Of a DNA stretch of 64,000 bases, positions 5,662 through 36,368 are shown in pieces. The notes under the pieces are model-generated. The model made no database searches. It was given only the letters and a program-made list of their open reading frames with translations, and was not told the origin of the DNA. Origin of the DNA: an uncultured Candidatus Saccharibacteria bacterium (GTDB lineage Bacteria; Patescibacteriota; Minisyncoccia; Phycocordibacterales; PALSA-1337). Every line of letters starts with the position of its first letter. Positions within the stretch are counted from its first letter, which is position 1. The DNA is taken from contig CAZGUZ010000003.1 of the NCBI GenBank assembly GCA_964529025.1, positions 22,368 to 86,367 of the forward strand, written 5' to 3'. A program made the translations under genes and the position numbers.

Positions 5662-5716
5662 ATATCTACTCTATCACACGTGAGTTGCTTGTGCTACAAT
5701 CGTAGAAAAGGCACAT

Positions 5717-11616: not shown

Positions 11617-11934
11617 ATGTTTAGCCGACGCGCACGAGTAACAACGTCGCTCTTTACTGAAGCATTGGCTTCAAGGAACGTTGTTTCTACGCCGTATGCA
11701 ACACTACGAGTACTTCCCCATGGGAGTACTCGTTGTGCTATTGTGGTATCTAAAAAGGTGGCAAAAAGCGCTGTAGTTCGCAATAGAATTAAGCGACAGG
11801 TTTCCCATATACTTAAAAAAATAAAGCTTCCTACTGCAATTATTCTGGTTTTCATTAAACCTTCATATATTGGTGCGGATAGAAATCAGATTATTACAAC
11901 TTTTACCGAGATAGTGCCTAAAATTAAGGTTTAG
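11617..11934 (+). CDS. rnpA: RNase P protein component
   Basis: 105 aa, basic, with the RNR motif region VVRNRIKRQV, directly after rpmH. Confidence 0.85.
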   Translation: MFSRRARVTTSLFTEALASRNVVSTPYATLRVLPHGSTRCAIVVSKKVAKSAVVRNRIKRQVSHILKKIKLPTAIILVFIKPSYIGADRNQIITTFTEIVPKIKV

Positions 11935-12757: not shown

Positions 12758-14161
12758 CTAATCATTAAGATCAAGAGCCCAAAGAGTGAGGTCTTGTTTA
12801 TTCATGAATACAAGGTAGTTTTCACGAGGATCAAATACAGGGTCGAGCACATCGATCTCTTGCTTCGCTTCGTCGTATAAATCGCTCAGGAGAACAGTTT
12901 CCCCTGTTTGAGTGTTGAGGTACCAAAGCTTATCATCAAAGCTTACAGTGCCCTTATACCAATCGTCAGGCATAAGGTTTCCAAGAGGTGTGCTTGGCAC
13001 TGCACAGATTACTTCGTATAAACGAACTCTACTCCATGCGCACTTATCGGCAACTGTTCCAAGAACAGTATCAAGAACGTTTCCATCTTTTAATGAATAC
13101 ACTTTAGTTTGAACAATGCGACCGCGTGATTCAGAAAAGAGTATTTTTGCTCCATCTTTACTCATTTTTGTAGTAAGGCCTAAAACATTTGATATTACCT
13201 TATCAAATACACGTGTACGAGTGTTGAGTGTATAAGCATATCCCCCGCTTCTACCAGATGCTTTTGTGGTGAGTACAAGAAACTCTTCAGTTGGCCAATC
13301 AATATTCCATAAAGGAAGTGGCGACTGAAAGATTTGCTGAGAAATAAGAGGGTTTGAAAGGCTTCCAAGCGATAGGGTGATTCCAGAGTTAATGGTACGC
13401 ACAGCAACAAAACGCTCACTTTGAGGTGCTGTTATATACGAAAGAATATCGCGACTCGAAATAGTTGGTTTAACAGTATATGTAGTTTCAGCTGTACGAG
13501 GTAAACCAAGACCCGGTGTTGATGTTGCGGTTGTCGTCGCTGTTGTTCTTACGGGCACAACCGAAGGGTTAGCACGACTAGTAATAGGCTTAATTGTTTG
13601 AATATTGAGTATTGTATGGGTCGGGTTGGTGTCGTTATCACGCAAAAATCCTAAAACAGCATTGTTTCCTGAGGGTGAGAATATTGTTGTGTACACCTTT
13701 GGCAGGGTTGTGTTTGATATTTTAACTACAGCACCAGTTTGAAGATTGGTTTCGTAAATGTGACCGTTTCCACGATCCACAAAACGAACTGTTGAAGATG
13801 TTGCCGATGTGCTTGAAGCATAAAAACCACTCACTGGCTTATCATATACCTGAAAAAGTCGAGGGCGCTTTACTTGCTGAGGAATCTGCTGGTTTGGCTC
13901 CTGACGAGTAGTTGTAGCTATCGGTGCTGGTGCATCAACCCCAGGTGTTAAGCGATTAAACGGAAAGAACCATGGCGATTGATTATTGCCTGTCGTTTGA
14001 GCAGGAATAATGGTTGAAAGTAGTTCTGGTCTAAAAAAGAAAATATACAACCCTACCCCGAAGGCTATGCAGAACACTATAAGAAGAGCGAGGAGTATTT
14101 TTCTTAACATGTTATTTGTAAGTTGCTTTAATATTTTCGAGGCGCTGTCGATACAAATCAA
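12758..14161 (-). CDS. Membrane-anchored secreted protein, Thr-rich linker plus possible beta-propeller C-terminal domain (last gene of the T4SS-like operon)
   Basis: N-terminal TM (ILLALLIVFCIAFGVGLYIFFF) and a Thr-rich stretch. Overlaps the upstream gene by 50 nt. No recognisable catalytic motif. Confidence 0.5.
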   Translation of the reverse strand: MICIDSASKILKQLTNNMLRKILLALLIVFCIAFGVGLYIFFFRPELLSTIIPAQTTGNNQSPWFFPFNRLTPGVDAPAPIATTTRQEPNQQIPQQVKRPRLFQVYDKPVSGFYASSTSATSSTVRFVDRGNGHIYETNLQTGAVVKISNTTLPKVYTTIFSPSGNNAVLGFLRDNDTNPTHTILNIQTIKPITSRANPSVVPVRTTATTTATSTPGLGLPRTAETTYTVKPTISSRDILSYITAPQSERFVAVRTINSGITLSLGSLSNPLISQQIFQSPLPLWNIDWPTEEFLVLTTKASGRSGGYAYTLNTRTRVFDKVISNVLGLTTKMSKDGAKILFSESRGRIVQTKVYSLKDGNVLDTVLGTVADKCAWSRVRLYEVICAVPSTPLGNLMPDDWYKGTVSFDDKLWYLNTQTGETVLLSDLYDEAKQEIDVLDPVFDPRENYLVFMNKQDLTLWALDLND

Positions 14162-15470
14162 GATTCTTTTTATAGAACTGAGCTGTTATGTCGTTTTCGT
14201 ATCCCTCACCAAAAGTTGTTTTAAGTGCTGTCCCTGTTGTTCTTGCGAGCATTCCATTGATAAGCCCTTGGAGCTTAGGTAGATTAGCTGTTGCAAAAAC
14301 TGTTGGTTGAGCTCCTTGTGTAACAACACGAACTGCATACTTTTCATACCGCTTTTCAAGATCAGCGGTGTCGCGAGCAAAGTCAGCCAAACTTGTAATT
14401 GCTTGTCGCCTGTCGTGTACTGCCTTACTCCCTTCTACATCATTCTGTTCAGCCATACTACTAAAAGCGGTATCATAAGGGGCGGTAATCTTGGCTTTTA
14501 TCTCGGGTATTTTTAAGTTTCGGTACCATATGTTTCTGTCGTCAAAAATAGCATCATTTGGATTCCATGGGGTATTTGAATACTCAATATATTCGGGTAC
14601 CACAACAACCTTGAGTGTGTCGTAGTAATCACTAAATCTTTCTATAACAACACTTTCACTTTTTGCTAAAATGAATTTTCTTTGAGGTTCTTTAAGTTTT
14701 TCTTGTATCTTTTTAATACCCTCATCGTCTTCTGGGTCACTCAGTCTGTATGCAGCTGCTTCTTCCTTAATTTTATCCACCTGGTTTTTATATGTTGCAG
14801 ATACATCGTCAAGACCCTCGCTCGCTTTTTCATTGTCTTCCGCTTGCTGAATAGCAGCTTTTTGAAGGTTTTGAATTCTTTTTTCTTCATTCTTAAGGAG
14901 TTGATCGAGTGTCAGAGGATCAAAAACATTATTTTTATCAACTCCAATAGGTGACAGGGGTTCCTGGGCAAGCTCAGTGATTTTGGGATCAATTGTTTGA
15001 AGGAATAAGAAAGAGCCCAGGGTCATAAAAAGACCAATAACTGCATTTTTAATAGTTTCTTTTGCTTCTGACTTCCCTGTAAATGCCTCAGTTGTCATGT
15101 ACTGAACACCTCCATACATAATCATTACAACAGCCAAGATGGATGCTAATGCCAAAAGAAGTCGGTAAGTATAGCCAAGAATTGCATAAAGGTTTACTTT
15201 CTTTACATAACCATCTTCACAGGTAATACCCTCTGTTACTGTTCCTTCTGGTCCATTGACACAAGGGAGTGGCTCAAGGAGTGTGTATTCTCGGCGCTTT
15301 GCATCGCCCGAAACAACATTGTTTGGATTTGATGCAACAGGAGTTTGTGCAGGTGTTGGCGTTGGTGTTTGGGCAAATGCTTCTGAAGTAAATAGAGAAT
15401 AATCACTACCAAGTGTGATGGCTGCAAAAAATATACAAGCAACAATGTGTGATTTAAAAGCTGGTTTCAT
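14112..15470 (-). CDS. Signal peptide + TrbC/VirB2-like two-helix pilin-type domain fused to a roughly 280-aa coiled-coil/charged C-terminal region
   Basis: Signal peptide, PTPTP linker and a Cys pair precede two hydrophobic helices separated by a short loop (LLLALASILAVVMIMYGGVQYM ... AVIGLFMTLGSFLFLQTI). That is the topology of conjugative pilin-like proteins. The gene lies inside the VirB4 cluster. Confidence 0.4.
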   Translation of the reverse strand: MKPAFKSHIVACIFFAAITLGSDYSLFTSEAFAQTPTPTPAQTPVASNPNNVVSGDAKRREYTLLEPLPCVNGPEGTVTEGITCEDGYVKKVNLYAILGYTYRLLLALASILAVVMIMYGGVQYMTTEAFTGKSEAKETIKNAVIGLFMTLGSFLFLQTIDPKITELAQEPLSPIGVDKNNVFDPLTLDQLLKNEEKRIQNLQKAAIQQAEDNEKASEGLDDVSATYKNQVDKIKEEAAAYRLSDPEDDEGIKKIQEKLKEPQRKFILAKSESVVIERFSDYYDTLKVVVVPEYIEYSNTPWNPNDAIFDDRNIWYRNLKIPEIKAKITAPYDTAFSSMAEQNDVEGSKAVHDRRQAITSLADFARDTADLEKRYEKYAVRVVTQGAQPTVFATANLPKLQGLINGMLARTTGTALKTTFGEGYENDITAQFYKKNLDLYRQRLENIKATYK

Positions 15471-16527
15471 TGGAGTTTTGAGCTGTATAGTTAATGGTAA
15501 ATTGTGAGAATACTCTTTGAAGAATATATTCAGGGTTCGTAATTACAAGCCCAACAAGCGCCGTTCCGTTTTCTTTCTGTTCAATACGAAGGGTTGTGGT
15601 ATCTTTCCCTGCTAGCTCGGGGCGCTCTCTATTGTTGAGGCTCCATTCATAGCTAATGTCTGAGTTTTTTGGTCGAGAGAATGAAAACGGTATAACTTTG
15701 TAAGTAACTTCGCTTGATGTTAAAGAAAAGTCTGATGTTACTGCTTTATTATACAATACCCCATACAAAGGACTTTCTTCGTATATCAATACTTCAGGTT
15801 GTGTTGCTTCAATCTCGATAACGGCCTCACCTTGAATTGTTTGGTCTTGTGAAATTACTACGACTTTAATTGAAAAAGGTCGCTGTATAGGTGATCCTGC
15901 AACAGTCAGGGTTTGTTTTCCATAACCAGACTCTGATCCAAGAACAGTTGAATTTTTTGTCCATGTGTAAATAAGGCTCGCTGGGTCAATGCGTTCCCCT
16001 GCACTTGTATACATATGAGGAATTGCAACAAATGTTATGTTTCCTTGGTAAGGAAAACTAGCTTTTCCTTTGTAGAATGGTGGTGTGATACCATCCGAAT
16101 ACCATGTAAGATCAACATCTCCTGGGCGAAGGGTTATTGATCTCTGGTATTTTGTGTTTTCTATGGTCGAAACCGAAACAGTAAGGACATTTGTTTTACC
16201 ACTTGTAGGAGCAATTCCTTCATAAGTTACTTTACCTATCCCACTCGCTACAACTTTGCCATCAATGGTCCAAACAATAGTTGCACCAGAAAGGTTAGTG
16301 TTAAAGCTTTGTATTTTTGCTGTGTAACTCTTATTCGGTCGAACTATTGTTGGGTTAATGGTGAGCTCAAGAGGGTTAAGATTGCCCGAACCAGGTGCAA
16401 TTTGAGCCTGTACTGTAGTTTGTTCAAAAAAACCACCTACATTAATGAATGGAATGAGCAATAAAACCCCTGCAATCGTGAGAATTGCCGGAATTTTCTT
16501 AAGGTGTGAAAAAGTAACACCAAACAT
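15454..16527 (-). CDS. N-terminally anchored secreted protein (beta-rich, Ig-like?), hypothetical
   Basis: N-terminal TM/signal, 357 aa, co-oriented with and overlapping its neighbours in the operon. Confidence 0.5.
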   Translation of the reverse strand: MFGVTFSHLKKIPAILTIAGVLLLIPFINVGGFFEQTTVQAQIAPGSGNLNPLELTINPTIVRPNKSYTAKIQSFNTNLSGATIVWTIDGKVVASGIGKVTYEGIAPTSGKTNVLTVSVSTIENTKYQRSITLRPGDVDLTWYSDGITPPFYKGKASFPYQGNITFVAIPHMYTSAGERIDPASLIYTWTKNSTVLGSESGYGKQTLTVAGSPIQRPFSIKVVVISQDQTIQGEAVIEIEATQPEVLIYEESPLYGVLYNKAVTSDFSLTSSEVTYKVIPFSFSRPKNSDISYEWSLNNRERPELAGKDTTTLRIEQKENGTALVGLVITNPEYILQRVFSQFTINYTAQNSNETSF

Positions 16528-16575
16528 ATATATAGTATAGCACTTGAGACTGCGAACATTTATCCCCTTGAGTCG

Positions 16576-17136
16576 CTATGGTCGGGGTGATTGAGGTCGG
16601 CGAATCCCCCCGCTATTGAGTGGTGGTGGTCGCAAATTACCATTATTAATACCAGATGCTCCGGCACCTACCATACTCGCAGTGCCCGCACCAGTTGCAA
16701 CATTTGCTGTGCGAGCAACATTAGCCGCCCCCTCGGCAGAATTGGCAATTTTACTTGCCCCAGCCTTTTTGCCAAATACATTAACAAGTTTAACTGCTTT
16801 ACCTGCTTTACCAGCAAAAGAATTAGGATCACTATCTGCCTTTACTGTTAACCACGACAAGATTACAGATATTGTCCAAATAGGTATGGTATCTGCAATC
16901 GGAATCATTTCGCCCGTTGCTGTTGCTAAAGAATTGGCTAATTGTTTTGCGGTTACTAAGGATACCCCTCTCCACCATAGATAACCGTTCAAGACAAAAG
17001 TCATTATTAAAGAAATAATGCGATTGACTGCTATACCACTGCCAAAGAAAATATTGAGCAAAATTTGCGCAATATCAACAATGAGTGCAAACACTAAGAT
17101 TGCAAACCACTCACCTTTCGAAATTGGTTTATGCAT
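16576..17136 (-). CDS. Small polytopic membrane protein (3 TM) with Gly/Ala-rich tail, hypothetical T4SS-associated
   Basis: 186 aa, hydrophobic helices, and a stop 2 nt before the VirB4 start. Confidence 0.5.
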   Translation of the reverse strand: MHKPISKGEWFAILVFALIVDIAQILLNIFFGSGIAVNRIISLIMTFVLNGYLWWRGVSLVTAKQLANSLATATGEMIPIADTIPIWTISVILSWLTVKADSDPNSFAGKAGKAVKLVNVFGKKAGASKIANSAEGAANVARTANVATGAGTASMVGAGASGINNGNLRPPPLNSGGIRRPQSPRP

Positions 17137-17137
17137 A

Positions 17138-18955
17138 CTAATTGCCCGCAGCCTTCAATTCTTCTTTTGCCTTTTTAATTGCAAGTACTGCAGATGGATT
17201 GGTGGTAATAATTTGGTCTTCAGTATACGATGCAATTACTTTAATTGCCACATGCTTCATTCCTACGAAGAATATTCCCTCTCCTACATCTGATTCAAGC
17301 AAAAGATACTTTTCTTCATCGGTAAGATTGAATGTTTGCTGAACCGTATCAATTGACGACGGGGATTGCTTAAGAAGAATCTGAATTGATGAGTTGGTAA
17401 TGATAGGCAAACCATACGGAGATTTAAGGAAGTCTTCTACGTCTTGAGTAATTGTTGCTAGACCAAGATAGTATTTTCGACCACGCTTTGCCAAACCAAG
17501 AAGGAATGAAGCTGTATCCTCGGATTTCATCATCCACCAAGCCTCGTCAATAACAAGGAGTCTCTTGCGGAGTTCTCGGCGAATTGCATTCCAAATATAG
17601 TGAGTAACAATGTACATTGCTACAGGCTTGAGCTCATCTTCCATGTCGCGCAAAGAAAACACGACAAACTTTTTATTAATATCTACGTTTGTTGGGCGGT
17701 TAATAAAGCCTGACCATGTTCCACGAGTGTATTTTGTGAGTCTTTGTACTAAAGAGTCTCCCCCTTCCATTCCGGCAAGAACAAGCTCAAAGTCTGACAT
17801 GAGGGGCGGTTCTACACTTCTGAAATCAGAATCAGCCGTAATATCCTTAAGGGCATACGTTTCGGTAATTGCTCTATCAATGATCGAATCTTCTTCTTGA
17901 GAAAGTCCACCAAGCATGATGCGGAAAAGCCCCACAAGGTTAACGATATGTGAGCGCAAAACGTCAGAAGATGCTTCGTCTTCGCGTGGTACGGGTAGGT
18001 CAAATGGGTTAATGTGGTGCTCTGAAGTAAGAGAAATATTAAAATATTTGCCCCCTGTTGCTTCGGCCATGTACTCGTATTCTCGTTCCGGGTCAATAAC
18101 AATTACCTCGGTATCAAACATGAGGGTTCGCAAAATTTCGAGTTTTGTTGCATATGATTTACCTGAACCGGCTTTAGCAAAGGTTACCGAGTTATAGTTT
18201 TCAAGCAAGAAGCGATCAAACAATACAAGCGAAGAGTTGTGGCGGTTAATTCCATACAAAATACCCTTGTCAGATGTAAGGTCAAAAGAAACAAAAGGAA
18301 AGAGACTCGAAAGAGGCGAAGAATTGAGCTTTGAGTGCACATTAAGCTCGTCGTTTGCTGCTGGTAAAACACTGCGATACCCTGCTTCTTGTTGGAATAG
18401 TGCTGGCTTAAGATAAATAAGCTTAGATTCGAGGAGTGACTTTACTTCGGATTCAACCTTATCAAGTTCCTGTGGAGAATCAGCAAAAATTGTAATGTAT
18501 ACTCCAACATCAAAAAGCTTTTCTTGAGCCTGAAGAAGATTGTCTCGAAGACTTTCAAGGTTTTGATATGCGGCATCAAGCTCGGGGTCACGAACAAGAC
18601 CCTTTTCTTCGCGAATATTGATTTGGCTTTGTACTTCAGCCACCTTTTTTTGGAATTGCCGCAAAATCTTTGATGTATCAAGGGGATGAACGTAGATAGA
18701 AATATTAAAAACCTTATCAAGGTTAATAATTGGAGCAAACCAGCTATCAGAAAGGTAGCGGGGATATGAAATTACGTAAAAAGTTCGGGCTATCTTTTCA
18801 CCAAGGTTAAGCTCCTTGGGGCTAATTTTAAGGGCAGAAGGAGCAATAACATCGCGAAGTTCGAGCATTCCAGCTTCATATACCTGCTCAGGCAATACTG
18901 ATGATATTTGAGGTTCTTTTGATTTTTTTGTAAAAAGTGAGTCGAAGATACCCAT
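17138..18955 (-). CDS. VirB4/TrbE/PrgJ-family type IV secretion ATPase (ATPase portion)
   Basis: CagE/TrbE/VirB region (FYVISYPRYLSDSWFAPI), Walker A FAKAGSGKSY and Walker B LLVIDEAWWMM (DEAW is typical of VirB4); 605 aa. Confidence 0.85.
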   Translation of the reverse strand: MGIFDSLFTKKSKEPQISSVLPEQVYEAGMLELRDVIAPSALKISPKELNLGEKIARTFYVISYPRYLSDSWFAPIINLDKVFNISIYVHPLDTSKILRQFQKKVAEVQSQINIREEKGLVRDPELDAAYQNLESLRDNLLQAQEKLFDVGVYITIFADSPQELDKVESEVKSLLESKLIYLKPALFQQEAGYRSVLPAANDELNVHSKLNSSPLSSLFPFVSFDLTSDKGILYGINRHNSSLVLFDRFLLENYNSVTFAKAGSGKSYATKLEILRTLMFDTEVIVIDPEREYEYMAEATGGKYFNISLTSEHHINPFDLPVPREDEASSDVLRSHIVNLVGLFRIMLGGLSQEEDSIIDRAITETYALKDITADSDFRSVEPPLMSDFELVLAGMEGGDSLVQRLTKYTRGTWSGFINRPTNVDINKKFVVFSLRDMEDELKPVAMYIVTHYIWNAIRRELRKRLLVIDEAWWMMKSEDTASFLLGLAKRGRKYYLGLATITQDVEDFLKSPYGLPIITNSSIQILLKQSPSSIDTVQQTFNLTDEEKYLLLESDVGEGIFFVGMKHVAIKVIASYTEDQIITTNPSAVLAIKKAKEELKAAGN

Positions 18956-18956
18956 A

Positions 18957-19589
18957 TTAGTTTGTTTTGATAGGCTTCTCAGTATCTCCAGGATTGAATA
19001 TTCTATAGAACAATTCTACCACCTCTTCGGTGCCAAGCGATGCAACACGAATTCCACAGCGTGTAAGCCCCTGCTCTACTACGGATACTCGCTGTTCTAA
19101 CTGGCTTTTATGTTCTTCAAACTCTGCTGTATTCATTGACTTAATCTTTTTCGGAGCAGCAAGAAGCCCAACAAGGCCTTTTCCTTGAGTCTGAATAATT
19201 GCAGGACTATAAGGAACAACAACAAAGAAACCTTTTGTCATGATATTTGAGGCTTCTACGAAGGTTTTGATAAATTCAATATATTCGCGAGTTTGAATTT
19301 TCATGAGTTCAGTACCCTGTTCTTTGTAACGATCCTCAAGAAGTCCGAGGTATGGCCTAATATCAAGCTCTTTTGATTGAATAAAAAACTGTATTGAGAA
19401 ATCAAGAGAGTTAATGAGATTTTGAAACTGAAAAATAATAGAGTTTTGCTCATCAGTTGATTTAAGAGCAAAGTTCAAAGAAGAAGCCATGATAATAGCC
19501 CGCATTGAGCCATCTTTAAGAATGACGATTCCATCACGAATCTCTTGAATAGGTACAAAATCTTGGGTTGTTTTTGATAATTCAGCCAT
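18957..19589 (-). CDS. VirB4-family N-terminal domain encoded as a separate 210-aa ORF (split VirB4 or frameshift)
   Basis: FVPIQEIRDGIVILKDGSMRAIIMASSLNFALKSTDEQNSIIFQFQNLINSL resembles the N-termini of Gram-positive VirB4 homologues (PrgJ/TcpF type). Its stop TAA is 1 nt from the ATG of the ATPase ORF in a different frame. 210 + 605 aa adds up to the normal VirB4 length. Confidence 0.45.
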   Translation of the reverse strand: MAELSKTTQDFVPIQEIRDGIVILKDGSMRAIIMASSLNFALKSTDEQNSIIFQFQNLINSLDFSIQFFIQSKELDIRPYLGLLEDRYKEQGTELMKIQTREYIEFIKTFVEASNIMTKGFFVVVPYSPAIIQTQGKGLVGLLAAPKKIKSMNTAEFEEHKSQLEQRVSVVEQGLTRCGIRVASLGTEEVVELFYRIFNPGDTEKPIKTN

Positions 19590-20026
19590 TATTTTTGATT
19601 CATGTTTGAATAAATACTCTCTTTAATATCCAGACTCCATGTCATATCTTTAAGTTTGCTATTAGAAATCTTTGGAACCAGTAGCTGGGCAGCTTCGGCA
19701 GCTTCGGGATTTTTTACCATTGCTTCGGGGTTGCGAGGATTCTTTTTCCAAAGATAGAGCTTTGGTGACATATAGTATTTTACCGCAGACTCGAGAATAA
19801 AGATAAAAGGCTTGTTGTTTATGCGATAAAAAGCTAGTACGAGTGAAAAAACAAGAACTGGAGCCATAATAATAACGAGTATGGCAAAAGGGAGTAATCC
19901 TTCGAGTCGAGTATAGATTAAAAATGACAAACCAGCCCCTCCGGCAAGATAAATAAATTGCTTAAGAGTGAGGGGGCCAAAGATTTTGTCTTCAACGTCA
20001 ATAAATTGAGGAACTTGAAAACGCAT
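19589..20026 (-). CDS. PrgI/VirB3-like small two-TM T4SS protein
   Basis: VPQFIDVEDKIFGPLTLKQFIYLAGGAGLSFLIY matches the PrgI-family N-terminal pattern (VPxxL..IK.K..FGLT.RQL) and is followed by two TM helices. It lies immediately upstream of VirB4, as PrgI does for PrgJ. Confidence 0.55.
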   Translation of the reverse strand: MRFQVPQFIDVEDKIFGPLTLKQFIYLAGGAGLSFLIYTRLEGLLPFAILVIIMAPVLVFSLVLAFYRINNKPFIFILESAVKYYMSPKLYLWKKNPRNPEAMVKNPEAAEAAQLLVPKISNSKLKDMTWSLDIKESIYSNMNQK

Positions 20027-20074
20027 ACATATAGTATACCACCAACTATTACGGTCGGTGGTATAACTAGTTCA

Positions 20075-20866
20075 CTATTCTTCTGTGTAAAGCTTTTTGA
20101 GGAAAGCTGGTTTGGTATCGCCTAATTCTATCGGTTCCCTGTATGGATCAGTACTACTTGGGCGGCTTTTTGGTGGAGTCTGTTTAAGAAGGTTTGCTAT
20201 ATCGGTTTGTGGCTGTGTTTGAGGTTGGGGTTGAGGTTTTTGCTCAGTTTCTTTGCGCTCTGCACCTGAATTGACTGGAATCTTATTTGTTGGTGTATAA
20301 TCCATAGTTTTTTGCTGTGTCTGTATGGTTATTGGTTCAGTTGAGCTAATTACGGTAGTTGATAGGGTGTCGTTTTCTTCTATTGCTCGTAAGAGCTCAT
20401 TGCGCACTTCGGGGTGTTCATGTTCTGGAATATGATCGTGGTCTTCTGAGCTATTGTTTACCCCTTTTATCCTAATTGCATCACCCTCGCCTACTATGTA
20501 TTCATGCGGATCAGCGTTTTGGGTAGCCTCTTCGTTTACGTATTCATCTTTCGAAGAGTCTCTTAAAGCATCGCGAACGGCTTCAAATACTATAGAATCA
20601 ATGTCTTTGCCAAGCTCAAGAGCTTGCGAGTGTGGTATGCGCACGTTTGCTTCGAGTCTCTCTACAAATTCATCAGCTTTGGTGAGTCCAGCAAGAGCAA
20701 AAGCTACTTCTTGAATAAGGGTATCAATTTGATCAATATGAAGATCGTTTTTTTCTCCAAGCATTGCCGCTGCATGGGTAAGTTCGGGCGAACCAAGAGC
20801 AGCCTGAATATGCTCTGGTAAGTTGTCGTATACTCGCTCAATGTCTTGTTGGGTAAAATTCTTCAT
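20075..20866 (-). CDS. Acidic cytoplasmic protein with PQ-repeat tail (QKPQPQPQTQPQT), hypothetical T4SS-associated
   Basis: 263 aa with no TM, co-oriented between the VirB6-like and PrgI-like genes. Confidence 0.45.
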   Translation of the reverse strand: MKNFTQQDIERVYDNLPEHIQAALGSPELTHAAAMLGEKNDLHIDQIDTLIQEVAFALAGLTKADEFVERLEANVRIPHSQALELGKDIDSIVFEAVRDALRDSSKDEYVNEEATQNADPHEYIVGEGDAIRIKGVNNSSEDHDHIPEHEHPEVRNELLRAIEENDTLSTTVISSTEPITIQTQQKTMDYTPTNKIPVNSGAERKETEQKPQPQPQTQPQTDIANLLKQTPPKSRPSSTDPYREPIELGDTKPAFLKKLYTEE

Positions 20867-20869
20867 GGT

Positions 20870-22933
20870 TTATAAGTTATCTCGCTCGAGTTTCGCTAGG
20901 TTCTGAGCAGCCACTTTGTAGTCGTCACGCAATTTTAGGAGCTTTGCTTCTTCTGATGATGTTATACCGTTCGAATCTCGCTTGCGTTTTTCAAGCTCAG
21001 CTATTTCCTTTTTAAGATCAGCAACCGCTTCTTTTGCATCAGCTAGATCGAGTTGACGCTGCTTCTTTGCAAGCTCTTTTGCAGCTTTTGCTTCGGCGGA
21101 ATCAAATTTATCAATAAATCTTCCAATGAATGGAATGTCTTTATGCTTGTCAGCAAAATTTCGAAGAAATGTATTTCGATGAACGTCTGCAACGTTTGAT
21201 TGACGCTCAATTTTCTTTTCTGCAATTTCTTTGTCTTTTGCGTCGAGTTCTGTTTCGGCAGTATCCAGGGCAATTTTTGCGGCGTCTTCAATACCAACTG
21301 CACTATCATATCTAAGTTTTGTATCATTGAGCTCTCTGTCAACGGCGTCGAATATATTTTGCTCTGCTCTTTGGCGATTTTGATCCCCAGCTGCACGTGC
21401 AGCATTAACCTTTTTACGTGCCTCCTCCCTTTTCTTCTCCAGGTCTTTTAGTTTTGATTTGAGACTCGATGAGTTTATTCTTGCTTCAGTTAGCGCTGTG
21501 CGAGCAGGCTCAACATTATTTATTCTATGAGCATCTCTATCCTCCATAAGCTTTTTTACTGCTGCCTCATCAAAACCTAGGCTTTCTGCAAATGCTACAC
21601 GAGTCTCTGCACGTTTCTTAGCAGCTTCTTCATAAGGCTTTGCTACACCCTTGATTGCATTTGTTGCAATTCTACCGAGCAAAGGATTGTTCTGAGAAAA
21701 TCTGTTAAGAGTTCCTGACTCAGCGAGTGCCGACGCTCCGCGCCCAACCGATTGGCGAAATATAAAACTATTTGTGCCTCGCATACCGCTCTTAATCTTT
21801 CCCTGACCCCATTTTGAAAAGTCCTCGAACCACTTATTTGCCATTGCACCACCGTAACCTCCTGATTTCTGTGATATTCCAAGAGCTGCACCAAGAACAA
21901 TGATAATGAGCGCGTAATTAAAGAAAGCTGCTATTGTTCCTGAACCTCCAATTGCAAAGTTTGCAAAATCACCCACTGTTTTATTAACAGCACCACTACC
22001 CTGAAAGATGTTGGCAAATTGAGTATTCTGACCAAATGACATTGAGTCTACAATCTTTAGTCCTACATACAAAACCATGAGCATGGTTGGTCCAGCAAAA
22101 AGTTGCTTGTAGAAAGTGTCTTCAAGTTGTTTGCGCGCATCTGCAGTTTGTGGAAGTACAATCGCAATAAAATAGAGTGGAGAAAATGCCATACAAAGAA
22201 GCAGGATTACAAGTCGATACACCATGGTAATTGCTGCCCCTAAGAATAAGAAGCCAATCATAGTCATAACTGTCACTGCTCCCATGCCTGTAACAAGGGC
22301 TTTTGCGGTAAAGCTTTCATTTCCTGCAAGGCTATTACCTACACTTGTCAAAGTCGCTAAGCTGAAGAAAGACTGAATTTTTACTTTCTGCATGATGGTA
22401 TCGCTGATGCTGTAATCATCGTACGGCTTAATTGCATCATAGAAAGTGAGTGCAACAAGGTTACTTCCATCAATCATGACTCGTGTCGCAAATAGACTAA
22501 AGTTGATAAAGAGTCCGCAGATAATTACGTTCTTAATTGTATTAGACAGATCCTTTCCTGTTAGCCCAAGAATAGTTCGAATCGAGGCGAATAACATAAC
22601 ACCAATAAGAGCAATGTTCGAGAGGTCGCGAATTGATCGCCACATGATTCCAATACTTGGCGTATTGTTAACCAAATCAGCCATATTGAGAGTTGCAGAT
22701 ATAGAAACATCAAGAAGTCCTGCTGTTATTTTTACCCACCATCCAGCAAGTACAAGTAGTACGTGTGAAAGCGCGGCAATAAGTGTGCCTTGGAGAAAGT
22801 CACCAGAAAGAGTTCCGAGTATTGCATTCGTCCAATCCATAGCGTGTGCTTGGTTTGGCAACAATGACACAAGCACCCCGAGGAGGGTTGCTCCCAACAG
22901 TATTATTCTTTTGTTGTTGGTTAGTTTTCTCAT
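20870..22933 (-). CDS. VirB6/TrbL-like polytopic membrane protein with about 250-aa C-terminal coiled-coil extension
   Basis: Signal/TM N-terminus, six or more hydrophobic helices in the first 400 aa, then a long K/E/R/A-rich coiled coil. Position and topology match VirB6-like channel subunits of Gram-positive T4SSs. No sequence-motif proof. Confidence 0.5.
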   Translation of the reverse strand: MRKLTNNKRIILLGATLLGVLVSLLPNQAHAMDWTNAILGTLSGDFLQGTLIAALSHVLLVLAGWWVKITAGLLDVSISATLNMADLVNNTPSIGIMWRSIRDLSNIALIGVMLFASIRTILGLTGKDLSNTIKNVIICGLFINFSLFATRVMIDGSNLVALTFYDAIKPYDDYSISDTIMQKVKIQSFFSLATLTSVGNSLAGNESFTAKALVTGMGAVTVMTMIGFLFLGAAITMVYRLVILLLCMAFSPLYFIAIVLPQTADARKQLEDTFYKQLFAGPTMLMVLYVGLKIVDSMSFGQNTQFANIFQGSGAVNKTVGDFANFAIGGSGTIAAFFNYALIIIVLGAALGISQKSGGYGGAMANKWFEDFSKWGQGKIKSGMRGTNSFIFRQSVGRGASALAESGTLNRFSQNNPLLGRIATNAIKGVAKPYEEAAKKRAETRVAFAESLGFDEAAVKKLMEDRDAHRINNVEPARTALTEARINSSSLKSKLKDLEKKREEARKKVNAARAAGDQNRQRAEQNIFDAVDRELNDTKLRYDSAVGIEDAAKIALDTAETELDAKDKEIAEKKIERQSNVADVHRNTFLRNFADKHKDIPFIGRFIDKFDSAEAKAAKELAKKQRQLDLADAKEAVADLKKEIAELEKRKRDSNGITSSEEAKLLKLRDDYKVAAQNLAKLERDNL

Positions 22934-22939
22934 TGTCTA

Positions 22940-24601
22940 TTATGGGAAGTATTTGCAGGCATTAGCTTCGTCACGCGCCCTTCGTTCAAGGTCGCGCAAG
23001 GTTCCGTTGTTGCTATCTGTATAACTATTATACTCGTCTGTCGCTTCATTTGCTCTAACTTTGTAAAGACTAATGCTTGGAAGTAAGTTGTTATACTCTG
23101 TTGCTGCTTTTTGTATATCACCCACCTGACTTGCACTTTCCGCTGTTGCTTTGATTCGAGACAGGTCAGAGATGTTTCTTTCAATAGATTGAACATCAAG
23201 GGTGAGGGTTGTAATTTTAGGAACCAATTGCCCTTCTATAATTGCATCCATATCTTTAATTTTATCAAGACCTCGAGAAATTGCATTTTGTGTGAGCCTC
23301 CGTGAGTTGCCTTGAAGTGCTGTATTGTAACAAGTCTTTACATCAACAAATTTAATTCTAAGTGCCGAGATATACTTAAGACTTTCATTTTTTGCATCAC
23401 GGTATTTCCAAGCATCAGTAGTGTAAGTATCGATAGTATCAAGAATGTTACTCTTTGAAGCTTGTAGTTGCTCATAGTTGAATGCTTGCTCTTGCTGGAG
23501 CTGTTGTGCAATTCCCTCTGTATCACTTGCCCCTGTTCCACTCACGCCCTTAAGTCCACCCACAAGAACCTTTTGTACTAATTGTGCAAAGAGGGCGTTA
23601 ATAATTTCATTAAATTCGTCTGCAAGTTCGAGTTCGCGAACTGGTGAGCCAAGAGATGTCTCAAGTGTTCCTGCAATTACAGAACCTGGAGTTTGAGTTT
23701 CGCACTTTTTACGAGTTGTTTCATTCGAAGCAGATTCATAGTAGCCCTGAAGCTGCGAGACGTTGTTTGTAAATTCTTGTGAATCTGATTGTCCGCTATT
23801 AGCGAGCTCACTATTACGTGCAGCAAGTTTATTTGCTTCAGATTCAGTAATAACTCGCTCATCTTTACAGGTCTTAAATGAAAGGAATCCTTTACCTTGA
23901 GAAAGCTCCTGATTTGCTCGGGCATTTGCATTAGCAATTCGTAGAGTTGCTTCGGTATCGGCAGTGACATATGCACCGATAAAGTTATTTTGAGGCTCAG
24001 TGGTCATCGAAACGAAAGCTGGCATTTTACCCTGTCTAAAGTCTCCAGCTGTGAAACCGTTAATCGAAGCCCCTTGAGCAGCGTTTGTTGTATTGTTAAT
24101 TATATCCGTTAGCGTACAGGCTGCTTTACCTTTCTGCTGGAATGGTCGATATCTAAAAGCTAGTTGCAGACGAATATCGATAGAAAAGTTACTACAGAGA
24201 AATGCTAGGTCACTGCCCAATATCATTCCGCCGAGAATTTCATCGCCAATGTCGGTAAAGAACTGTCCAGGATCACTAAGGAATGCTGGGCTACCCTCAA
24301 AACCATTATTGATCCAGTTTACAACACTTGATGTAATACCACGCAAAATTTGTTTAGCAATACCATATGCAATTGCGTCAAAAGTAAGTTCCTTTATCTG
24401 AAGACTCGTCATAAGTCCGGTTTGGATTGATGAGTTGGCAGCTGTAATAGTATTTTGCGCAATGTTTCCTGCATCGACTACGGGTATTGCGTGAGCAGTT
24501 TTTGGAGCAATTAAAAGCGTTGAAAGTGGAAAAAATATTTGCACACTTAAAGTACTTACGATGAGAATTGTTGAGACAAATTGTTTTAAAATAGTTCTCA
24601 T
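22940..24601 (-). CDS. Secreted protein (signal peptide, Asn/Thr-rich, coiled-coil segments), hypothetical T4SS-associated
   Basis: 553 aa, N-terminal signal ending ..TAHA, no enzymatic motif recognised, and a stop 7 nt before the VirB6-like start. Confidence 0.5.
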   Translation of the reverse strand: MRTILKQFVSTILIVSTLSVQIFFPLSTLLIAPKTAHAIPVVDAGNIAQNTITAANSSIQTGLMTSLQIKELTFDAIAYGIAKQILRGITSSVVNWINNGFEGSPAFLSDPGQFFTDIGDEILGGMILGSDLAFLCSNFSIDIRLQLAFRYRPFQQKGKAACTLTDIINNTTNAAQGASINGFTAGDFRQGKMPAFVSMTTEPQNNFIGAYVTADTEATLRIANANARANQELSQGKGFLSFKTCKDERVITESEANKLAARNSELANSGQSDSQEFTNNVSQLQGYYESASNETTRKKCETQTPGSVIAGTLETSLGSPVRELELADEFNEIINALFAQLVQKVLVGGLKGVSGTGASDTEGIAQQLQQEQAFNYEQLQASKSNILDTIDTYTTDAWKYRDAKNESLKYISALRIKFVDVKTCYNTALQGNSRRLTQNAISRGLDKIKDMDAIIEGQLVPKITTLTLDVQSIERNISDLSRIKATAESASQVGDIQKAATEYNNLLPSISLYKVRANEATDEYNSYTDSNNGTLRDLERRARDEANACKYFP

Positions 24602-24602
24602 A

Positions 24603-25580
24603 TTATTCTAGTACTAAGCCAAAAAAGTAACCGCCTTCTGTTGGTTCAAAGCTAATTCCCGCAGCATGAAATTGTCTTTTAATTACAAGGTTACTTTCTG
24701 TAAAGTTTTCAAATGCTTTCGGGTATCTGCCAATCGCTTGTAAAGCAATAAGAGGGTTTGTAAAGACATTTTTAAATGCTTCAGAAATAAAGAGGAGCTC
24801 ACTTACGGTATTAATCATAAGAATATGATTGGCGCCAAGTTTTTGTGGAACAGGAGTTTTGAGAAGGGCTTCAATAATTTTTTTGTAGCTTGCAATGAGT
24901 GGATCGAGCTCATTAAGAATTGCGGGATTTTCTTTATCGAGCGCATCTTTAACAATGAGTGTTTCATTACGCACCTTAGTTTCATTTGCTAAAAATATTC
25001 CACCAACAGCATTTGTATAGTTGCGAAGTGTTAAGGTATCGTTCGCTTCGATTCCGCTAATAACGATAATATCTTTTAATGTATATGTCTTTGGAATCTC
25101 TGTATACGCACTCGAAGTAATAAGTTCATTGATTACTGCGGCGCGGCTATCGGCATCATCTATGAGCCCTGTTTGTTTAAGCTCGATATACTTAGCGAAA
25201 ATATCTCGACCAAACTTTTCTGTTTGATTGAGTTTTGCATACTCTTCTTGTGCTGTTACAACTTTAGGACCTGCTCCGGCAATGCTTGGGTTGCGGCCCT
25301 GCTCAACTTCTACTCCATCAAGGATTCCATCACCATCACTATCTTTTGTTTGCGGATTTGTATTCCAAATTACCTCTTCCCAATCTTTAAGACCGTCGCT
25401 GTCCGAATCAATAAGTTGTATGTCTTCAACAAGTTGCTTATTTGCAGGATTCGCTACTATTTCTGGTGTATATACACCAACATTTTTTGGAGAAGTAATT
25501 TCTGCAAAGAAAAAAACGCCACCAACAAGGATTAGTGACCCTGCGATAAGAATTAAATTGTTTTTTCCAGGGTAGATCAC
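24603..25580 (-). CDS. N-terminally anchored protein with thrombospondin-type-3-like Ca-binding repeats (DSDSDGLKDWEE / DSDGDGILDGVE), first gene of the T4SS-like operon
   Basis: N-terminal TM and DxDxDG Ca-binding loops; the stop overlaps the start of the next gene by 1 nt. Confidence 0.5.
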   Translation of the reverse strand: MIYPGKNNLILIAGSLILVGGVFFFAEITSPKNVGVYTPEIVANPANKQLVEDIQLIDSDSDGLKDWEEVIWNTNPQTKDSDGDGILDGVEVEQGRNPSIAGAGPKVVTAQEEYAKLNQTEKFGRDIFAKYIELKQTGLIDDADSRAAVINELITSSAYTEIPKTYTLKDIIVISGIEANDTLTLRNYTNAVGGIFLANETKVRNETLIVKDALDKENPAILNELDPLIASYKKIIEALLKTPVPQKLGANHILMINTVSELLFISEAFKNVFTNPLIALQAIGRYPKAFENFTESNLVIKRQFHAAGISFEPTEGGYFFGLVLE

Positions 25581-25659
25581 GGGGTGTAAGTTACTCGTTT
25601 AATTATAGCAGAGTATCCCCTGTCAATTCTTTAAAAACCCTTAATTCTGTGGACAATTA

Positions 25660-35198: not shown

Positions 35199-35299
35199 AC
35201 ATATAGTTTACCACCTTGCGAGTGCTTTTTTGTACAAGTTTCCCCCAGAATAGCAAAATATTCTACGTAATTAGAGCACGATATTGTGAGAACCGTATG

Positions 35300-35848: not shown

Positions 35849-35993
35849 ATAATAAATTTATATAAAAATACGAACGTTATAAAAAACTCAACAAACTAAC
35901 GATAAAGCTCACAGTAAACAAATAATAAGAACTAAAACTGTTAATATAAAAACAGACTCACTCTATATACATAATAAGTATACACCATATTAA

Positions 35994-36018
35994 ACAAAAA
36001 ACCGCTGAGCGGTCTTTT
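35994..36018. terminator. Hairpin ACCGC-TGAG-CGGT with flanking A/T runs downstream of rpsO (minus strand)
   Basis: Read directly from the sequence; lies in the classical rpsO-pnp intercistronic position. Confidence 0.5.
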
Positions 36019-36025
36019 GATGAAA

Positions 36026-36292: not shown

Positions 36293-36368
36293 GTTGGCAC
36301 TACAATAGCACATATGTTTTTTATTTGCAACTAAATTCCCCAACTGAACCTAATGGTATACTAATACT

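Follow-up and report, generated by a model that had tools for sequence, protein, structure and literature searches.

A conserved eleven-gene cluster resembling the non-conjugative type IV secretion system on the chromosome of Patescibacteria

Organization of the cluster and its core components

The DNA analysed here (the window) is a stretch of 64 kb. Eleven open reading frames (ORFs) were found on its minus strand between positions 12758 and 25580, all of them where they had been placed beforehand. With gene 11 starting at the ATG at 14110, the successive gaps from gene 1 to gene 11 are 1, 6, 3, 48, −1, 1, 1, 48, −17 and 1 nt; the longest ORF for gene 11, which starts at a TTG (14161), would overlap gene 10 by 50 nt. 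The end of rsmA, on the upstream side, lies 79 nt from gene 1. This arrangement, with no gap exceeding 48 nt, agrees with an earlier note on this DNA that described eleven co-directional, tightly packed genes. The note also proposed that they form one operon. However, extended −10 boxes are present in the two 48-nt gaps and in the gap before gene 1, and we consider that the eleven genes probably constitute about three transcription units.

The box TGCTATAAT (25602–25610, minus strand), read from the sequence, precedes the GTG of gene 1 by 21 nt and is a candidate promoter for genes 1–4. TGGTATACT (20033–20041, minus strand) ends 6 nt ahead of the ATG of gene 5 and could drive a leaderless transcript of genes 5–8. 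TGCTATACT (16534–16542, minus strand) ends at the same distance, 6 nt, from the ATG of gene 9 and may likewise produce a leaderless transcript of genes 9–11. For comparison we used 80 related genome loci that were picked by VirB4 similarity, many of which end early at contig ends. A −10-like box ending 4–9 nt ahead of the start was found for gene 5 (ATG) in 50 of 74 loci and for the called start of the gene 1 orthologue in 24 of 50, and the gene 9 box is kept in 34 of 69. The corresponding values for two comparison starts were 13 of 62 (gene 3) and 21 of 80 (gene 7).

Gene 7 (17138–18955, minus strand) encodes a VirB4 ATPase of 605 aa that carries both Walker motifs (A, AKAGSGKS; B, LLVIDE). 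Profile-HMM search placed this ORF in the VirB4 family, as had been claimed, with a match above cutoff to the NCBIfam model conju_CD1110 (3.9e-111, 372.6 bits; cutoff 325). Further matches were obtained with Pfam P-loop_TraG (1.4e-26) and the VirB4 structure PDB 4ag5 (2.8e-43), and the protein aligned with residues 206–797 of CD1110 VirB4 at 4e-90. Judged by these similarities, gene 7 is the motor of the system, a VirB4 of the CD1110/MPF-FATA type. Gene 6 (18957–19589, minus strand; 210 aa) is TrsD-like and carries the VirB4 N-terminal domain as a gene of its own. Its description as a VirB4 N-domain was upheld by BLASTP alignment with residues 24–197 of the full-length, 797-aa CD1110 VirB4 (3e-7) and by NCBIfam matches to TrsD (5.5e-8) and VirB4_plasma (6.1e-11, model positions 101–233), both below their cutoffs; in the precomputed Pfam annotation it is listed as TraC-like (PF26593). 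Together, the products of genes 6 and 7 tile the full-length CD1110 VirB4, and the split into an N-domain gene and an ATPase gene is present in 79 loci.

Gene 5 (19589–20026, minus strand; 145 aa) belongs to the PrgI family, the monoderm VirB3 equivalent that anchors VirB4 to the membrane (Pfam PrgI, 1.3e-11, 45.3 bits; cutoff 27). In the 452-aa product of gene 10 (14112–15470, minus strand), a signal peptide and a YTxLxPLP-type motif are accompanied by a pilin domain of the VirB2/TrbC type with two TM segments (Pfam T4SS_pilin PF18895, residues 102–150, 1.6e-6, 28.5 bits; cutoff 26.6). This domain is fused to a charged, non-conserved C-terminal extension of about 290 aa; in the orthologue alignment, conservation is confined to the N-terminal 165 aa or so. 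The above-cutoff matches bear out the earlier descriptions of gene 5 as PrgI/VirB3-like and of gene 10 as a TrbC-like pilin-domain fusion.

Gene 3 (20870–22933, minus strand) encodes a polytopic protein of 687 aa with about eight TM-like segments in residues 1–352 and a charged tail of about 250 aa. The tail is poor in Pro and Gly, consists to 61% of E/K/R/D/Q/A and is probably a coiled coil. By position and topology the protein is VirB6-like, with weak support from sequence: Pfam TrbL/VirB6 matched 7 of 56 orthologues, at an E value of 1.6e-4 in the best case, but not the copy in the window, and hhalign comparison with CD1112 VirB6 or R751 TrbL was not significant in either case.

Secreted and accessory proteins

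Seven partner proteins of the cluster are poorly characterised. A large secreted protein is encoded by gene 2 (22940–24601, minus strand; 553 aa). It has a signal peptide with a cleavage-type site between AHA and IPVVD, a TrbJ/VirB5-type motif near the N-terminus, a central domain that is conserved, and a C-terminal part that forms a long helical bundle; six Cys residues spread over the protein are invariant. Its family comprises about 5,700 clusters; homologues match DUF4141 over the same stretch as the N-terminal motif, and orthologues have gained lectin-like or Ig-like domains. Like TrbJ, the protein carries IPV[VI]DxxNxxQN..TA directly after the signal peptide, and its gene is the one just ahead of that for the VirB6-like protein, as in trbJ(-trbK)-trbL of R751 and in the DUF4141-traJ arrangement of Bacteroides conjugative transposons. 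However, it is more than twice as long as TrbJ/VirB5 (553 versus 254 aa), its central domain and six invariant Cys residues have no counterpart in that family, and the sequence match to TrbJ extends over only about 49 residues, signal peptide included. The fold match to TrbJ/VirB5 (pKM101 TraC, PDB 1r8i) was no better than to generic helical bundles, and a Foldseek search with the gene 2 model found no TrbJ/VirB5 fold match. The gene 2 product looks like TrbJ/VirB5, a pilus-associated protein, and is a candidate pilus-associated or adhesin subunit. Most partner proteins had previously been left without a family; this stands for genes 4 and 8, neither of which has a Pfam match, but not for gene 2 with its TrbJ/VirB5-type N-terminus.

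The 357-aa product of gene 9 (15454–16527, minus strand) begins with a membrane helix, behind which three Ig/FN3-like domains, all-beta sandwiches, are arranged in tandem (residues 53–133, 137–239 and 245–347). It is a membrane-anchored extracytoplasmic stalk or adhesion module, in keeping with its earlier description as an Ig-like protein. The protein, with its three Ig-like domains, is not VirB8-like; no VirB8-like protein was found, the structure models covering genes 2 and 9. The 450-aa product of gene 11 (12758–14110, minus strand) also has an N-terminal membrane helix, here followed by an extracytoplasmic domain that weakly resembles a TolB/DPP-IV beta-propeller. The family profile matched TolB chains in the PDB with E values of 0.0045–0.14, and faint DPPIV_N or PD40 matches were seen in a few orthologues, so that the propeller-like assignment made before stands on weak evidence.

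Gene 1 (24603–25580, minus strand; 325 aa) encodes an N-terminal membrane helix, the one TM-like segment (residues 10–28), and two bacterial TSP3 (Ca-binding) repeats. The repeats noted earlier were recovered with Pfam TSP3_bac (1.7e-8), which also matches 14 of the orthologues scanned; no family was found for the C-terminal domain of about 220 aa. The protein is predicted to be a surface or wall-associated accessory protein. Gene 4 (20075–20866, minus strand) encodes a 263-aa acidic protein (pI 4.7) with a PQ repeat and no TM segment, as described before, and is predicted to be a cytoplasmic accessory protein. Neither the window copy nor its orthologues matched Pfam or NCBIfam, and most of ten loci mapped have a non-membrane ORF of about 170–255 aa at this place. 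Gene 8 (16576–17136, minus strand) specifies a small, basic protein of 186 aa. TM-segment prediction confirmed its three TM segments, and its Gly/Ala-rich tail terminates in a G-[IV]-R-x-P motif. A 2–4-TM ORF sharing the C-terminal motif occupies the slot in 49 of 67 loci.

Genomic setting and conservation

The gene order dnaN-dnaA-rnpA-yidC-[11 genes]-rsmA-pcrA is preserved in 79 of the 80 related genomes, all from Paceibacteria, which argues for vertical inheritance and against a mobile element. The GC content of the cluster (0.39–0.42) equals that of the rest of the window, and no flanking repeats were found around it. The cluster thus sits among core genes (rsmA, pcrA) and outside any mobile element, as the earlier note had it. 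A ComM-like helicase gene (29862–31373) and pcrA are cluster neighbours.

Pfam search of all window ORFs of at least 100 aa (64 kb) identified no relaxase, VirD4 or VirB8/9/10/11 family member, consistent with what had been reported, and the search for a relaxase, VirD4 and integrase flanking the cluster in the 64-kb window found none. The sole tyrosine recombinase in the window is Xer-like (36369–37382), 11 kb off and beside rpsO. A VirB1 hydrolase had likewise been called absent; this is correct inside the eleven genes, but a LysM-LysM-M23 peptidase gene (28752–29861, plus strand; Pfam Peptidase_M23 1.6e-31, LysM 9.3e-22) lies 3.2 kb upstream, divergent from pcrA, and is syntenic in 9 of about 10 loci that reach upstream of pcrA. 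VirB1-type M23/LysM proteins are associated with virB4 in Paceibacteria (PMC12102498). The peptidase may take over the function of the VirB1 cell-wall hydrolase, its membership of the system being uncertain. T4CP homologues are located far from virB4 in many Patescibacteria (PMC12102498), and a coupling protein or relaxase may be encoded beyond the 64 kb analysed.

In tblastn searches, gene 7 was detected in all 80 loci and genes 5 and 6 in 79 of them. The counts for the other genes were 75 (gene 9), 62 (genes 3 and 10), 57 (gene 2), 56 (gene 11), 41 (gene 1) and 25 (gene 4), and the ORFs are accordingly taken to be real genes. Gene 8, a short and hydrophobic sequence, is not suited to this method. 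Median identity of the cytoplasmic parts was 81% for VirB4 (inflated in part by the selection of loci on VirB4 similarity), 65% for TrsD and 54% for PrgI, compared with 59% for DnaA; gene 7 identity ranged from 78 to 87% over 79 species. Exposed parts were only 27–37% identical, with ranges of 22–54% for gene 1 (41 loci) and 25–36% for gene 11 (56 loci). We read this combination of a conserved cytoplasmic core with divergent exposed parts, together with the lectin-like or Ig-like domains gained by gene 2 orthologues, as a host-interface signature.

The best 120 of 8,000 scored VirB4 homologues were all 598–614 aa long, and those among the 120 that carry an organism name all came from Patescibacteria, Paceibacteria or Parcubacteria metagenome-assembled genomes. 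The 80 loci are labelled Parcubacteria, Paceibacterota, Taylorbacteria or Zambryskibacteria, and many others 'uncultured Candidatus Saccharibacteria', which we took as a generic label. The putative clade placement of gene 7 is based on its nearest neighbours and the CD1110 model.

Relationship to known systems and possible function

We conclude, with a probability of about 0.75, that the region is the published chromosomal, non-conjugative T4SS of the ultra-small Patescibacteria (CPR) in its typical Paceibacteria form, beside the replication origin, vertically inherited and MPF-FATA-derived. The Patescibacteria-clade T4SS (Quinonero-Coronel et al. 2025, PMC12102498) has TrsD, PrgI, VirB6 and VirB2 near virB4, lacks a relaxase and adjoins dnaA/dnaN/rnpA/ksgA in Paceibacteria. 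The present cluster shares with it the MPF-FATA ancestry of VirB4 and a TrsD-like protein encoded by a gene of its own; next to virB4, both have PrgI, a VirB6-like protein and a pilin of family PF18895. Both lack a relaxase or coupling protein nearby and adjoin dnaA, dnaN, rnpA and ksgA (rsmA). HMM matches, synteny in 79 genomes and the literature therefore agree with the earlier reading of a minimal Gram-positive-type T4SS with VirB3, VirB4, VirB6-like and pilin components in a lineage of reduced-genome episymbionts. Its novelty did not hold up, as the system, its origin-near position and relaxase absence included, was published in 2023–2025 (PMC10633639, PMC12102498, PMC12857230).

In Southlakia epibionticum (Saccharimonadia; SEML1_0006-0019), a lysozyme and a peptidase adjoin virB4, and the cluster includes an NTF2-like (VirB8-like) protein and a six-pilin array (Wang et al. 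2023, PMC10633639). In contrast, the present cluster has one pilin with a long fused tail and no internal hydrolase; an NTF2-like protein has not been found so far, and TSP3, TrbJ-like 553-aa, three-Ig and TolB-like propeller proteins are present instead. The Southlakia T4SS is essential for epibiotic growth, whereas comEC is dispensable (PMC10633639, PMC12857230). In a cultured relative, tubules that may be T4SS pili are reported where the cell meets its host, as is the uptake of host RNA (bioRxiv 10.64898/2026.06.21.733656).

The gene order VirB6>PrgI>VirB4 is common to the cluster and the Clostridium botulinum conjugative plasmid pCDC3875 (CTn2/CD1110 type, MPF-FATA), with whose VirB4 protein gene 7 is 31% identical. 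A further MPF-FATA-class monoderm conjugative T4SS is pGO1 TrsC-TrsD-TrsE. pCDC3875 additionally encodes a VirD4 of the CD1115 family and an SLT transglycosylase and shows MOBP relaxase typing, none of which was found in the window, whereas the VirB2-type pilin of the cluster has no annotated equivalent on the plasmid.

We infer that the machine serves contact-dependent exchange with a host rather than conjugation. VirB4/TrsD would dock on PrgI and the polytopic gene 3 product and power the assembly of a channel through the membrane and of a VirB2-type filament. The products of genes 2, 9, 11 and 1 would reach across the cell wall or be displayed on it and contact the host cell. T4SS-derived uptake systems without T4CP or relaxase are exemplified by Helicobacter pylori ComB and archaeal Ced, whose minimal set consists of a VirB4-like ATPase, a polytopic VirB6-like protein and small VirB2/VirB3-like membrane proteins. 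The cluster has this same set, and a parts list without coupling protein or relaxase is closest to such systems. For this reason we lean towards import of host macromolecules, tentatively and at less than even odds, over effector export or adhesion alone. Ced is a DNA importer relying on type IV pili (cited in PMC12102498); no Patescibacteria T4SS is known to perform uptake.

Alternatively, the cluster could be an effector-export or purely adhesive surface organelle that delivers proteins into or onto the host, or simply tethers the cell, without import, a possible reading that again has less than even odds. Non-conjugative T4SSs mostly export proteins, those without a coupling protein including Bordetella Ptl and Brucella VirB; the many Sec-signal or anchored surface proteins of the cluster and the lectin-like or Ig-like domains of gene 2 orthologues fit adhesion, and protein export has been suggested as possible for this system (Wang et al., PMC10633639). 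On the other hand, ORF annotation revealed no effector or toxin candidate in or beside the cluster. Export is judged only slightly less likely than import, and adhesion alone clearly less so; the extreme conservation of the motor favours active translocation over tethering alone.

A ComB/Ced-type competence machine taking up environmental or host DNA for transformation or nucleotides has a still slimmer chance. The lack of T4CP and relaxase, the adjoining ComM-like helicase gene and pcrA, and the proximity of class ABY1 T4SS loci to comF, recG and radA fit such a machine. However, the NCBIfam CedB match of gene 7 is negligible (7e-8, 31.5 bits; cutoff 700), and ComB has outer-membrane VirB7/9/10 parts whereas the cluster has no VirB9/10 family match. 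In Southlakia, transformation requires comEC, but comEC can be dispensed with and the T4SS cannot, so that what makes the T4SS essential is not classical competence. Moreover, the window contains a separate type IV pilus cluster (50791–59079), and natural competence of Saccharibacteria has been attributed to type IV pili (PMC12857230).

An ordinary integrative conjugative element or remnant, with relaxase, coupling protein and integrase outside the eleven genes, would account for the CD1110-family VirB4 typical of Firmicutes conjugative elements, the Clostridium-like core gene order and the tyrosine recombinase, but it is already largely refuted by the missing relaxase and T4CP, the Xer-like nature and distance of that recombinase, the constant core-gene position and unremarkable GC and flanks described above, and the rarity of relaxases in Patescibacteria (103 of 3,035 genomes, with only 15 of 109 relaxase genes close to virB4; PMC12102498).

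In the literature searched, we found no mention of a TrbJ/VirB5-like member of Patescibacteria-clade T4SSs. Relative to the published system, with which we identify the cluster, the sole new detail is what looks like a TrbJ/VirB5 resemblance in the large secreted product of gene 2.

Organization and transcription of the cluster

All eleven minus-strand ORFs reported in the earlier note were found exactly as listed there, between positions 12758 and 25580. From gene 1, at the highest coordinates, to gene 11, the intergenic gaps are 1, 6, 3, 48, −1, 1, 1, 48, −17 and 1 nt when the ATG at 14110 is taken as the gene 11 start; the longest gene 11 ORF begins with a TTG at 14161 and overlaps gene 10 by 50 nt. 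The end of rsmA lies 79 nt upstream of gene 1. The GC content of the block, 0.39–0.42, is the same as that of the remainder of the window. For comparison with related genomes, species-representative genomes were scanned for VirB4; of the 573 confirmed matches, the best 80 loci (given handles such as L001) were analysed. As the products of the eleven ORFs were recovered by tblastn in the same order in related genomes, we conclude that the ORFs are real genes.

A scan for promoter and terminator consensus sequences across the region gave matches at or below shuffle expectation and hence no usable signal. The gaps were also read directly and conservation was then checked. Each of the three longer gaps contains an extended −10 box on the minus strand: TGCTATAAT lies 21 nt before gene 1, TGGTATACT ends 6 nt before the gene 5 ATG and TGCTATACT ends 6 nt before the gene 9 ATG. 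A −10-like box recurs at that position ahead of gene 5 (50 of 74 loci) and gene 9 (34 of 69), and less often ahead of genes 3 and 7, which are tightly coupled (13 of 62 and 21 of 80 loci, respectively). We infer about three transcription units, comprising genes 1–4, 5–8 and 9–11, of which at least two are probably leaderless. The tight spacing that had been read as the mark of one operon is confirmed; judging by the conserved −10 boxes, the genes are probably not a single unit.

TATACT- or TATAAT-type −10 boxes, often TGn-extended and about 6 nt before the ATG, are common throughout the window, for example upstream of 20026, 16527, 28488, 35198, 36369, 45235, 45289 and 63255. A Shine-Dalgarno-like motif was found for only one of 55 window genes. 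This −10 layout, combined with the near absence of Shine-Dalgarno motifs, suggests that leaderless translation is widespread in this genome.

Motor, putative channel, pilin and accessory proteins

The earlier note had staked its interpretation on gene 7 (17138–18955) belonging to the VirB4 family. Gene 7 matches the NCBIfam model for VirB4-like conjugal transfer ATPases of the CD1110 family (3.9e-111, 372.6 bits, cutoff 325), Pfam P-loop_TraG (1.4e-26) and the VirB4 structure PDB 4ag5 (2.8e-43), and it contains Walker A (AKAGSGKS) and Walker B (LLVIDE) motifs; the assignment therefore stands. The best 120 VirB4 homologues are 84–100% identical to gene 7 and 598–614 aa long, and those among them that carry an organism name all come from Patescibacteria or Paceibacteria genomes. 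By these comparisons gene 7 appears to be a VirB4 of MPF-FATA ancestry with its nearest relatives in Patescibacteria, as expected of the Patescibacteria-clade T4SS.

Gene 6 gave sub-cutoff matches to NCBIfam TrsD (5.5e-8) and to the N-terminal part of a mycoplasma VirB4 model (6.1e-11). When compared with the 797-aa CD1110 VirB4 of Clostridium plasmid pCDC3875, gene 6 aligns to residues 24–197 and gene 7 to residues 206–797. The TrsD match and the alignment to the N-terminal residues of a full-length VirB4 bear out the proposal that gene 6 is a detached VirB4 N-domain. The possibility that the split VirB4 is an assembly artefact was ruled out, as 79 loci carry both ORFs with stable lengths. 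Gene 5 matches Pfam PrgI, the VirB3 equivalent, at 45.3 bits (cutoff 27). Thus, a TrsD-like gene and a PrgI/VirB3 gene adjoin virB4, which is the arrangement of the Patescibacteria-clade T4SS.

In gene 3, about eight TM-like segments precede a charged tail (about 250 aa), in which 61% of the residues are charged or alanine. This is a VirB6-type architecture, i.e. a polytopic protein (at least five TM segments) encoded next to VirB3/VirB4 and bearing a large hydrophilic extension, and the position of gene 3 relative to its neighbours is that of the CD1112 VirB6 gene in pCDC3875. 'Extended VirB6' proteins have been described previously (PMC12857230). The window copy matched no family, and 7 of 56 orthologues matched Pfam TrbL/VirB6 (PF04610; best E 1.6e-4). 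Comparison of the gene 3 family with CD1112 VirB6 (E 0.45) and R751 TrbL (E 0.077) by hhalign was not significant in either case, and a search of PDB with the family profile returned chance or coiled-coil matches only. The topology given in the earlier note is upheld, and the description of gene 3 as VirB6-like is based on topology, position and a weak sequence signal.

In gene 10, a signal peptide precedes a Pfam T4SS_pilin domain (PF18895; residues 102–150, 28.5 bits, cutoff 26.6). Orthologues share the pilin domain but not the roughly 290-aa C-terminal extension. A VirB2-type pilin is thus encoded near virB4, again as in the Patescibacteria-clade T4SS.

The remaining genes appear to be accessory. 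Gene 1 contains TSP3 repeats (Pfam). Genes 4 and 8 matched no Pfam or NCBIfam family in the window and none in Pfam scans of individual orthologues; in 49 of 67 loci the gene 8 slot encodes a small protein with 2–4 TM segments and a C-terminal G-[IV]-R-x-P motif, and these proteins form a family defined by position. Gene 9 was the best VirB8 candidate by size and topology, and structure prediction gave three all-beta Ig-like domains. No VirB8-like NTF2 fold was seen in the modelled genes 2 and 9. The gene 11 family profile matches TolB beta-propellers (E 0.0045–0.14), and faint DPPIV_N or PD40 matches occur in a small number of orthologues; these matches weakly support the earlier description of gene 11 as propeller-like.

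Median identity to the window protein across loci differed greatly among the components. VirB4 had a value of 81%, which is inflated because the loci were selected by VirB4 similarity, followed by TrsD (65%) and PrgI (54%). The values for DnaA, PcrA and DnaN were 59%, 58% and 48%, and those for genes 1–4 and 8–11 were 27–37%. The cytoplasmic motor has clearly hardly changed, unlike the exposed parts, which evolve quickly, and this difference holds despite the VirB4 selection. At locus L001, a 4.1-kb contig (CAZWGR010000049.1), VirB4 is 100% identical to the window protein, gene 5 is 94% identical and genes 4, 8 and 9 are 77–79% identical. This pattern points to strain-level divergence or recombination that may be concentrated in exposed components.

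Gene 2 as a candidate VirB5/TrbJ relative

Gene 2 encodes a signal peptide followed by a conserved IPVxDxxNxxQ N-terminal motif. At its mature N-terminus, gene 2 (AHA|IPVVDAGNIAQNTITAANSS) is similar to R751 TrbJ (QAG|IPVIDGTNLSQNIMTAIES). When a 111-member gene 2 profile was compared with R751 TrbJ using hhalign, the match had an E of 7.8e-5 with 37% identity over 49 columns; control comparisons with three other secreted R751 Trb proteins gave E values of 0.26–0.51. Many gene 2 homologues also match Pfam DUF4141 at about residues 15–59 with 28–31.8 bits, one of them above the cutoff of 30, and DUF4141 proteins of Bacteroides conjugative transposons are encoded beside traJ and near traG. Gene 2 is directly upstream of the VirB6-like gene, and R751 trbJ stands likewise relative to trbL. 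The protein is predicted to be helical, and its six cysteines are all invariant in the family. The family is large, with 5,707 clusters at E ≤ 1e-3 and 2,692 at E ≤ 1e-30. Arguing against the link are the shortness of the match, the length of the protein (553 aa versus about 220–250 aa for the three-helix-bundle TraC/VirB5 proteins) and the non-specific nature of the fold evidence. The family profile had only chance or coiled-coil matches in PDB. Weighing these results, we put the probability that gene 2 is related to VirB5/TrbJ at roughly 0.4. A VirB5/TrbJ-like member of the Patescibacteria-clade systems is not reported in the two papers searched that mention both Patescibacteria and VirB5.

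Gene 2 orthologues vary in their modules (L010, L016, L019, L028, L029, L060 and others), and some are at least 800 aa long. Extra domains were found in several orthologues, six having F5/8-type-C domains (discoidin, carbohydrate-binding) and two having bacterial surface Ig-like domains. These additions fit the modular variation expected of an exposed adhesive protein, which gene 2 may be, that binds a host.

Genomic setting and proposed function

The block is flanked by dnaN (8572–9675), dnaA (9915–11321), rnpA (11617–11934) and yidC on one side, and by rsmA (ksgA; 25660–26514), pcrA, a LysM-M23 peptidase gene and a ComM-like ATPase gene on the other. Of the 80 loci, 79 keep the collinear order pcrA-rsmA-genes 1 to 11-yidC-rnpA-dnaA-dnaN. 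The titles of the genomes that supplied the 80 loci name Parcubacteria, Paceibacterota, Taylorbacteria or Zambryskibacteria, or bear a seemingly generic 'Saccharibacteria' label. At the one non-collinear locus (L042, Parcubacteria bacterium C7867-005), the gene 9 orthologue (5238–6266) lies between genes 2 and 3 rather than following gene 8. Five loci (L010, L020, L064, L070 and L075) have an extra 1.5–2.5 kb between rsmA and gene 1; in L020 (1757–3376) it carries an ORF of 539 aa with 12 TM-like segments, and the window lacks such an insertion.

When the ORFs of the 64-kb window (all those of 100 aa or more) were scanned against Pfam, no relaxase, VirD4/TcpA or VirB8–11 was found. The sole tyrosine recombinase in the window (36369–37382) is Xer-like and 11 kb away, no att-like repeats flank the block, and no Rfam families or tRNAs were found inside it. 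An ICE or plasmid T4SS was judged very unlikely: the window contains neither relaxase nor VirD4/TcpA, flanking repeats are absent, GC is uniform and 79 of 80 loci are collinear. The non-conjugative interpretation thus survives the search of the window for a flanking relaxase, VirD4 and integrase. The dnaA/dnaN/rnpA/ksgA setting without a relaxase or coupling protein in the window is that described for the Patescibacteria-clade T4SS. Similarly, no VirB1-type peptidoglycan hydrolase was found among the eleven genes, as previously claimed, although a LysM-LysM-M23 peptidase (28752–29861, plus strand) is encoded outside the cluster, just upstream of pcrA together with the ComM-like Mg-chelatase-family ATPase (29862–31373, minus strand). 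The peptidase gene keeps this position relative to the T4SS block in 9 of about 10 loci that extend that far; such enzymes are also housekeeping proteins.

The system itself has already been published. In Southlakia, the T4SS (SEML1_0006–0019) lies next to dnaA, is essential for epibiotic growth and has pilins but no recognisable coupling protein or relaxase (Wang et al. 2023, PMC10633639). Patescibacteria T4SSs matter because this essentiality was found in the only lineage open to genetics. In a survey of 3,035 Patescibacteria genomes, a monophyletic clade of VirB4 proteins was recovered within MPF-FATA; TrsD, PrgI, VirB6 and VirB2 were widespread beside virB4, relaxases were rare, and the systems lay near dnaA, dnaN, rnpA and ksgA, most notably in Paceibacteria (Quinonero-Coronel et al. 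2025, PMC12102498). The canonical monoderm core consists of VirB1, B3, B4, B6, B8 and D4, whereas the window has no D4, and no VirB8-like protein was found by the Pfam scan or in the models of genes 2 and 9. The cluster also differs from the Saccharimonadia prototype, in having one pilin fusion rather than six pilins, in that no internal hydrolase or NTF2-like protein was found, and in its accessory set of TSP3, TrbJ-like, three-Ig and propeller proteins.

The window is thus a new example only, nothing new at the system level, though a clean and fully syntenic one from Paceibacteria; its modest fresh lead is the TrbJ/VirB5-like gene 2 family. It also offers annotations for 'grey' genes that could guide experiments (the TrbJ/VirB5-like protein, three-Ig stalk, TolB-like propeller, conserved small membrane protein and probable leaderless sub-operons).

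Sequence comparison identifies the motor, the anchor and the pilin, and shows that the window lacks conjugation-specific genes. In the mechanism that we propose, VirB4/TrsD, docked on PrgI and on a channel formed by gene 3, would assemble a VirB2-type filament, with which gene 2 would be associated as an adhesin. Genes 1, 9 and 11 would provide wall-spanning or host-binding parts, and the whole machine would mediate contact-dependent exchange with the host. With neither a coupling protein nor a relaxase among the parts, we lean towards import rather than export, but the present evidence does not discriminate between the two. A cultured relative is reported to have tubular structures, possibly T4SS pili, and to take up host RNA (2026 preprint, bioRxiv 10.64898/2026.06.21.733656). 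A more specific model, which we consider unlikely as a whole, is a monoderm VirB2/VirB5-type pilus with gene 10 as shaft and gene 2 as host-recognition tip, joined to a T4CP-less VirB4/VirB6 channel that imports host polymers. According to this pilus-import model, host cytoplasmic polymers such as RNA would feed a nucleotide-auxotrophic cell through the tube, and the fast-evolving ectodomains of genes 2, 9, 10 and 11 would determine host range. If the TrbJ/VirB5 link is true, VirB2 and VirB5 pilus-associated subunits would be common to these monoderm systems and Gram-negative T4SSs, which bears on how the former reach their hosts.

Several other features of the window were recorded. Two minus-strand ORFs, 31841–33103 (420 aa) and 47493–48419 (308 aa), matched no Pfam family. 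RNA-processing genes are dense at 33060–44498 and 63255–63968, and include those for PNPase, an NYN-domain RNase, an RNHCP protein, RNase Y, RNase H and a CCA-adding or poly(A) polymerase-type enzyme with an HD domain. This run is of interest since PNPase and VirB4 have been linked to host-RNA feeding (bioRxiv 10.64898/2026.06.21.733656). A separate type IV pilus/T2SS-like cluster on the plus strand (50791–59079) encodes a PilB-type ATPase (T2SSE and MshEN), a PilC-type platform protein (T2SSF), an N-methyl prepilin, a 601-aa CarboxypepD_reg/PEGA protein, and 479-aa and 399-aa ORFs without an assigned family. A second T2SSE ATPase is encoded at 96–1457, also on the plus strand.
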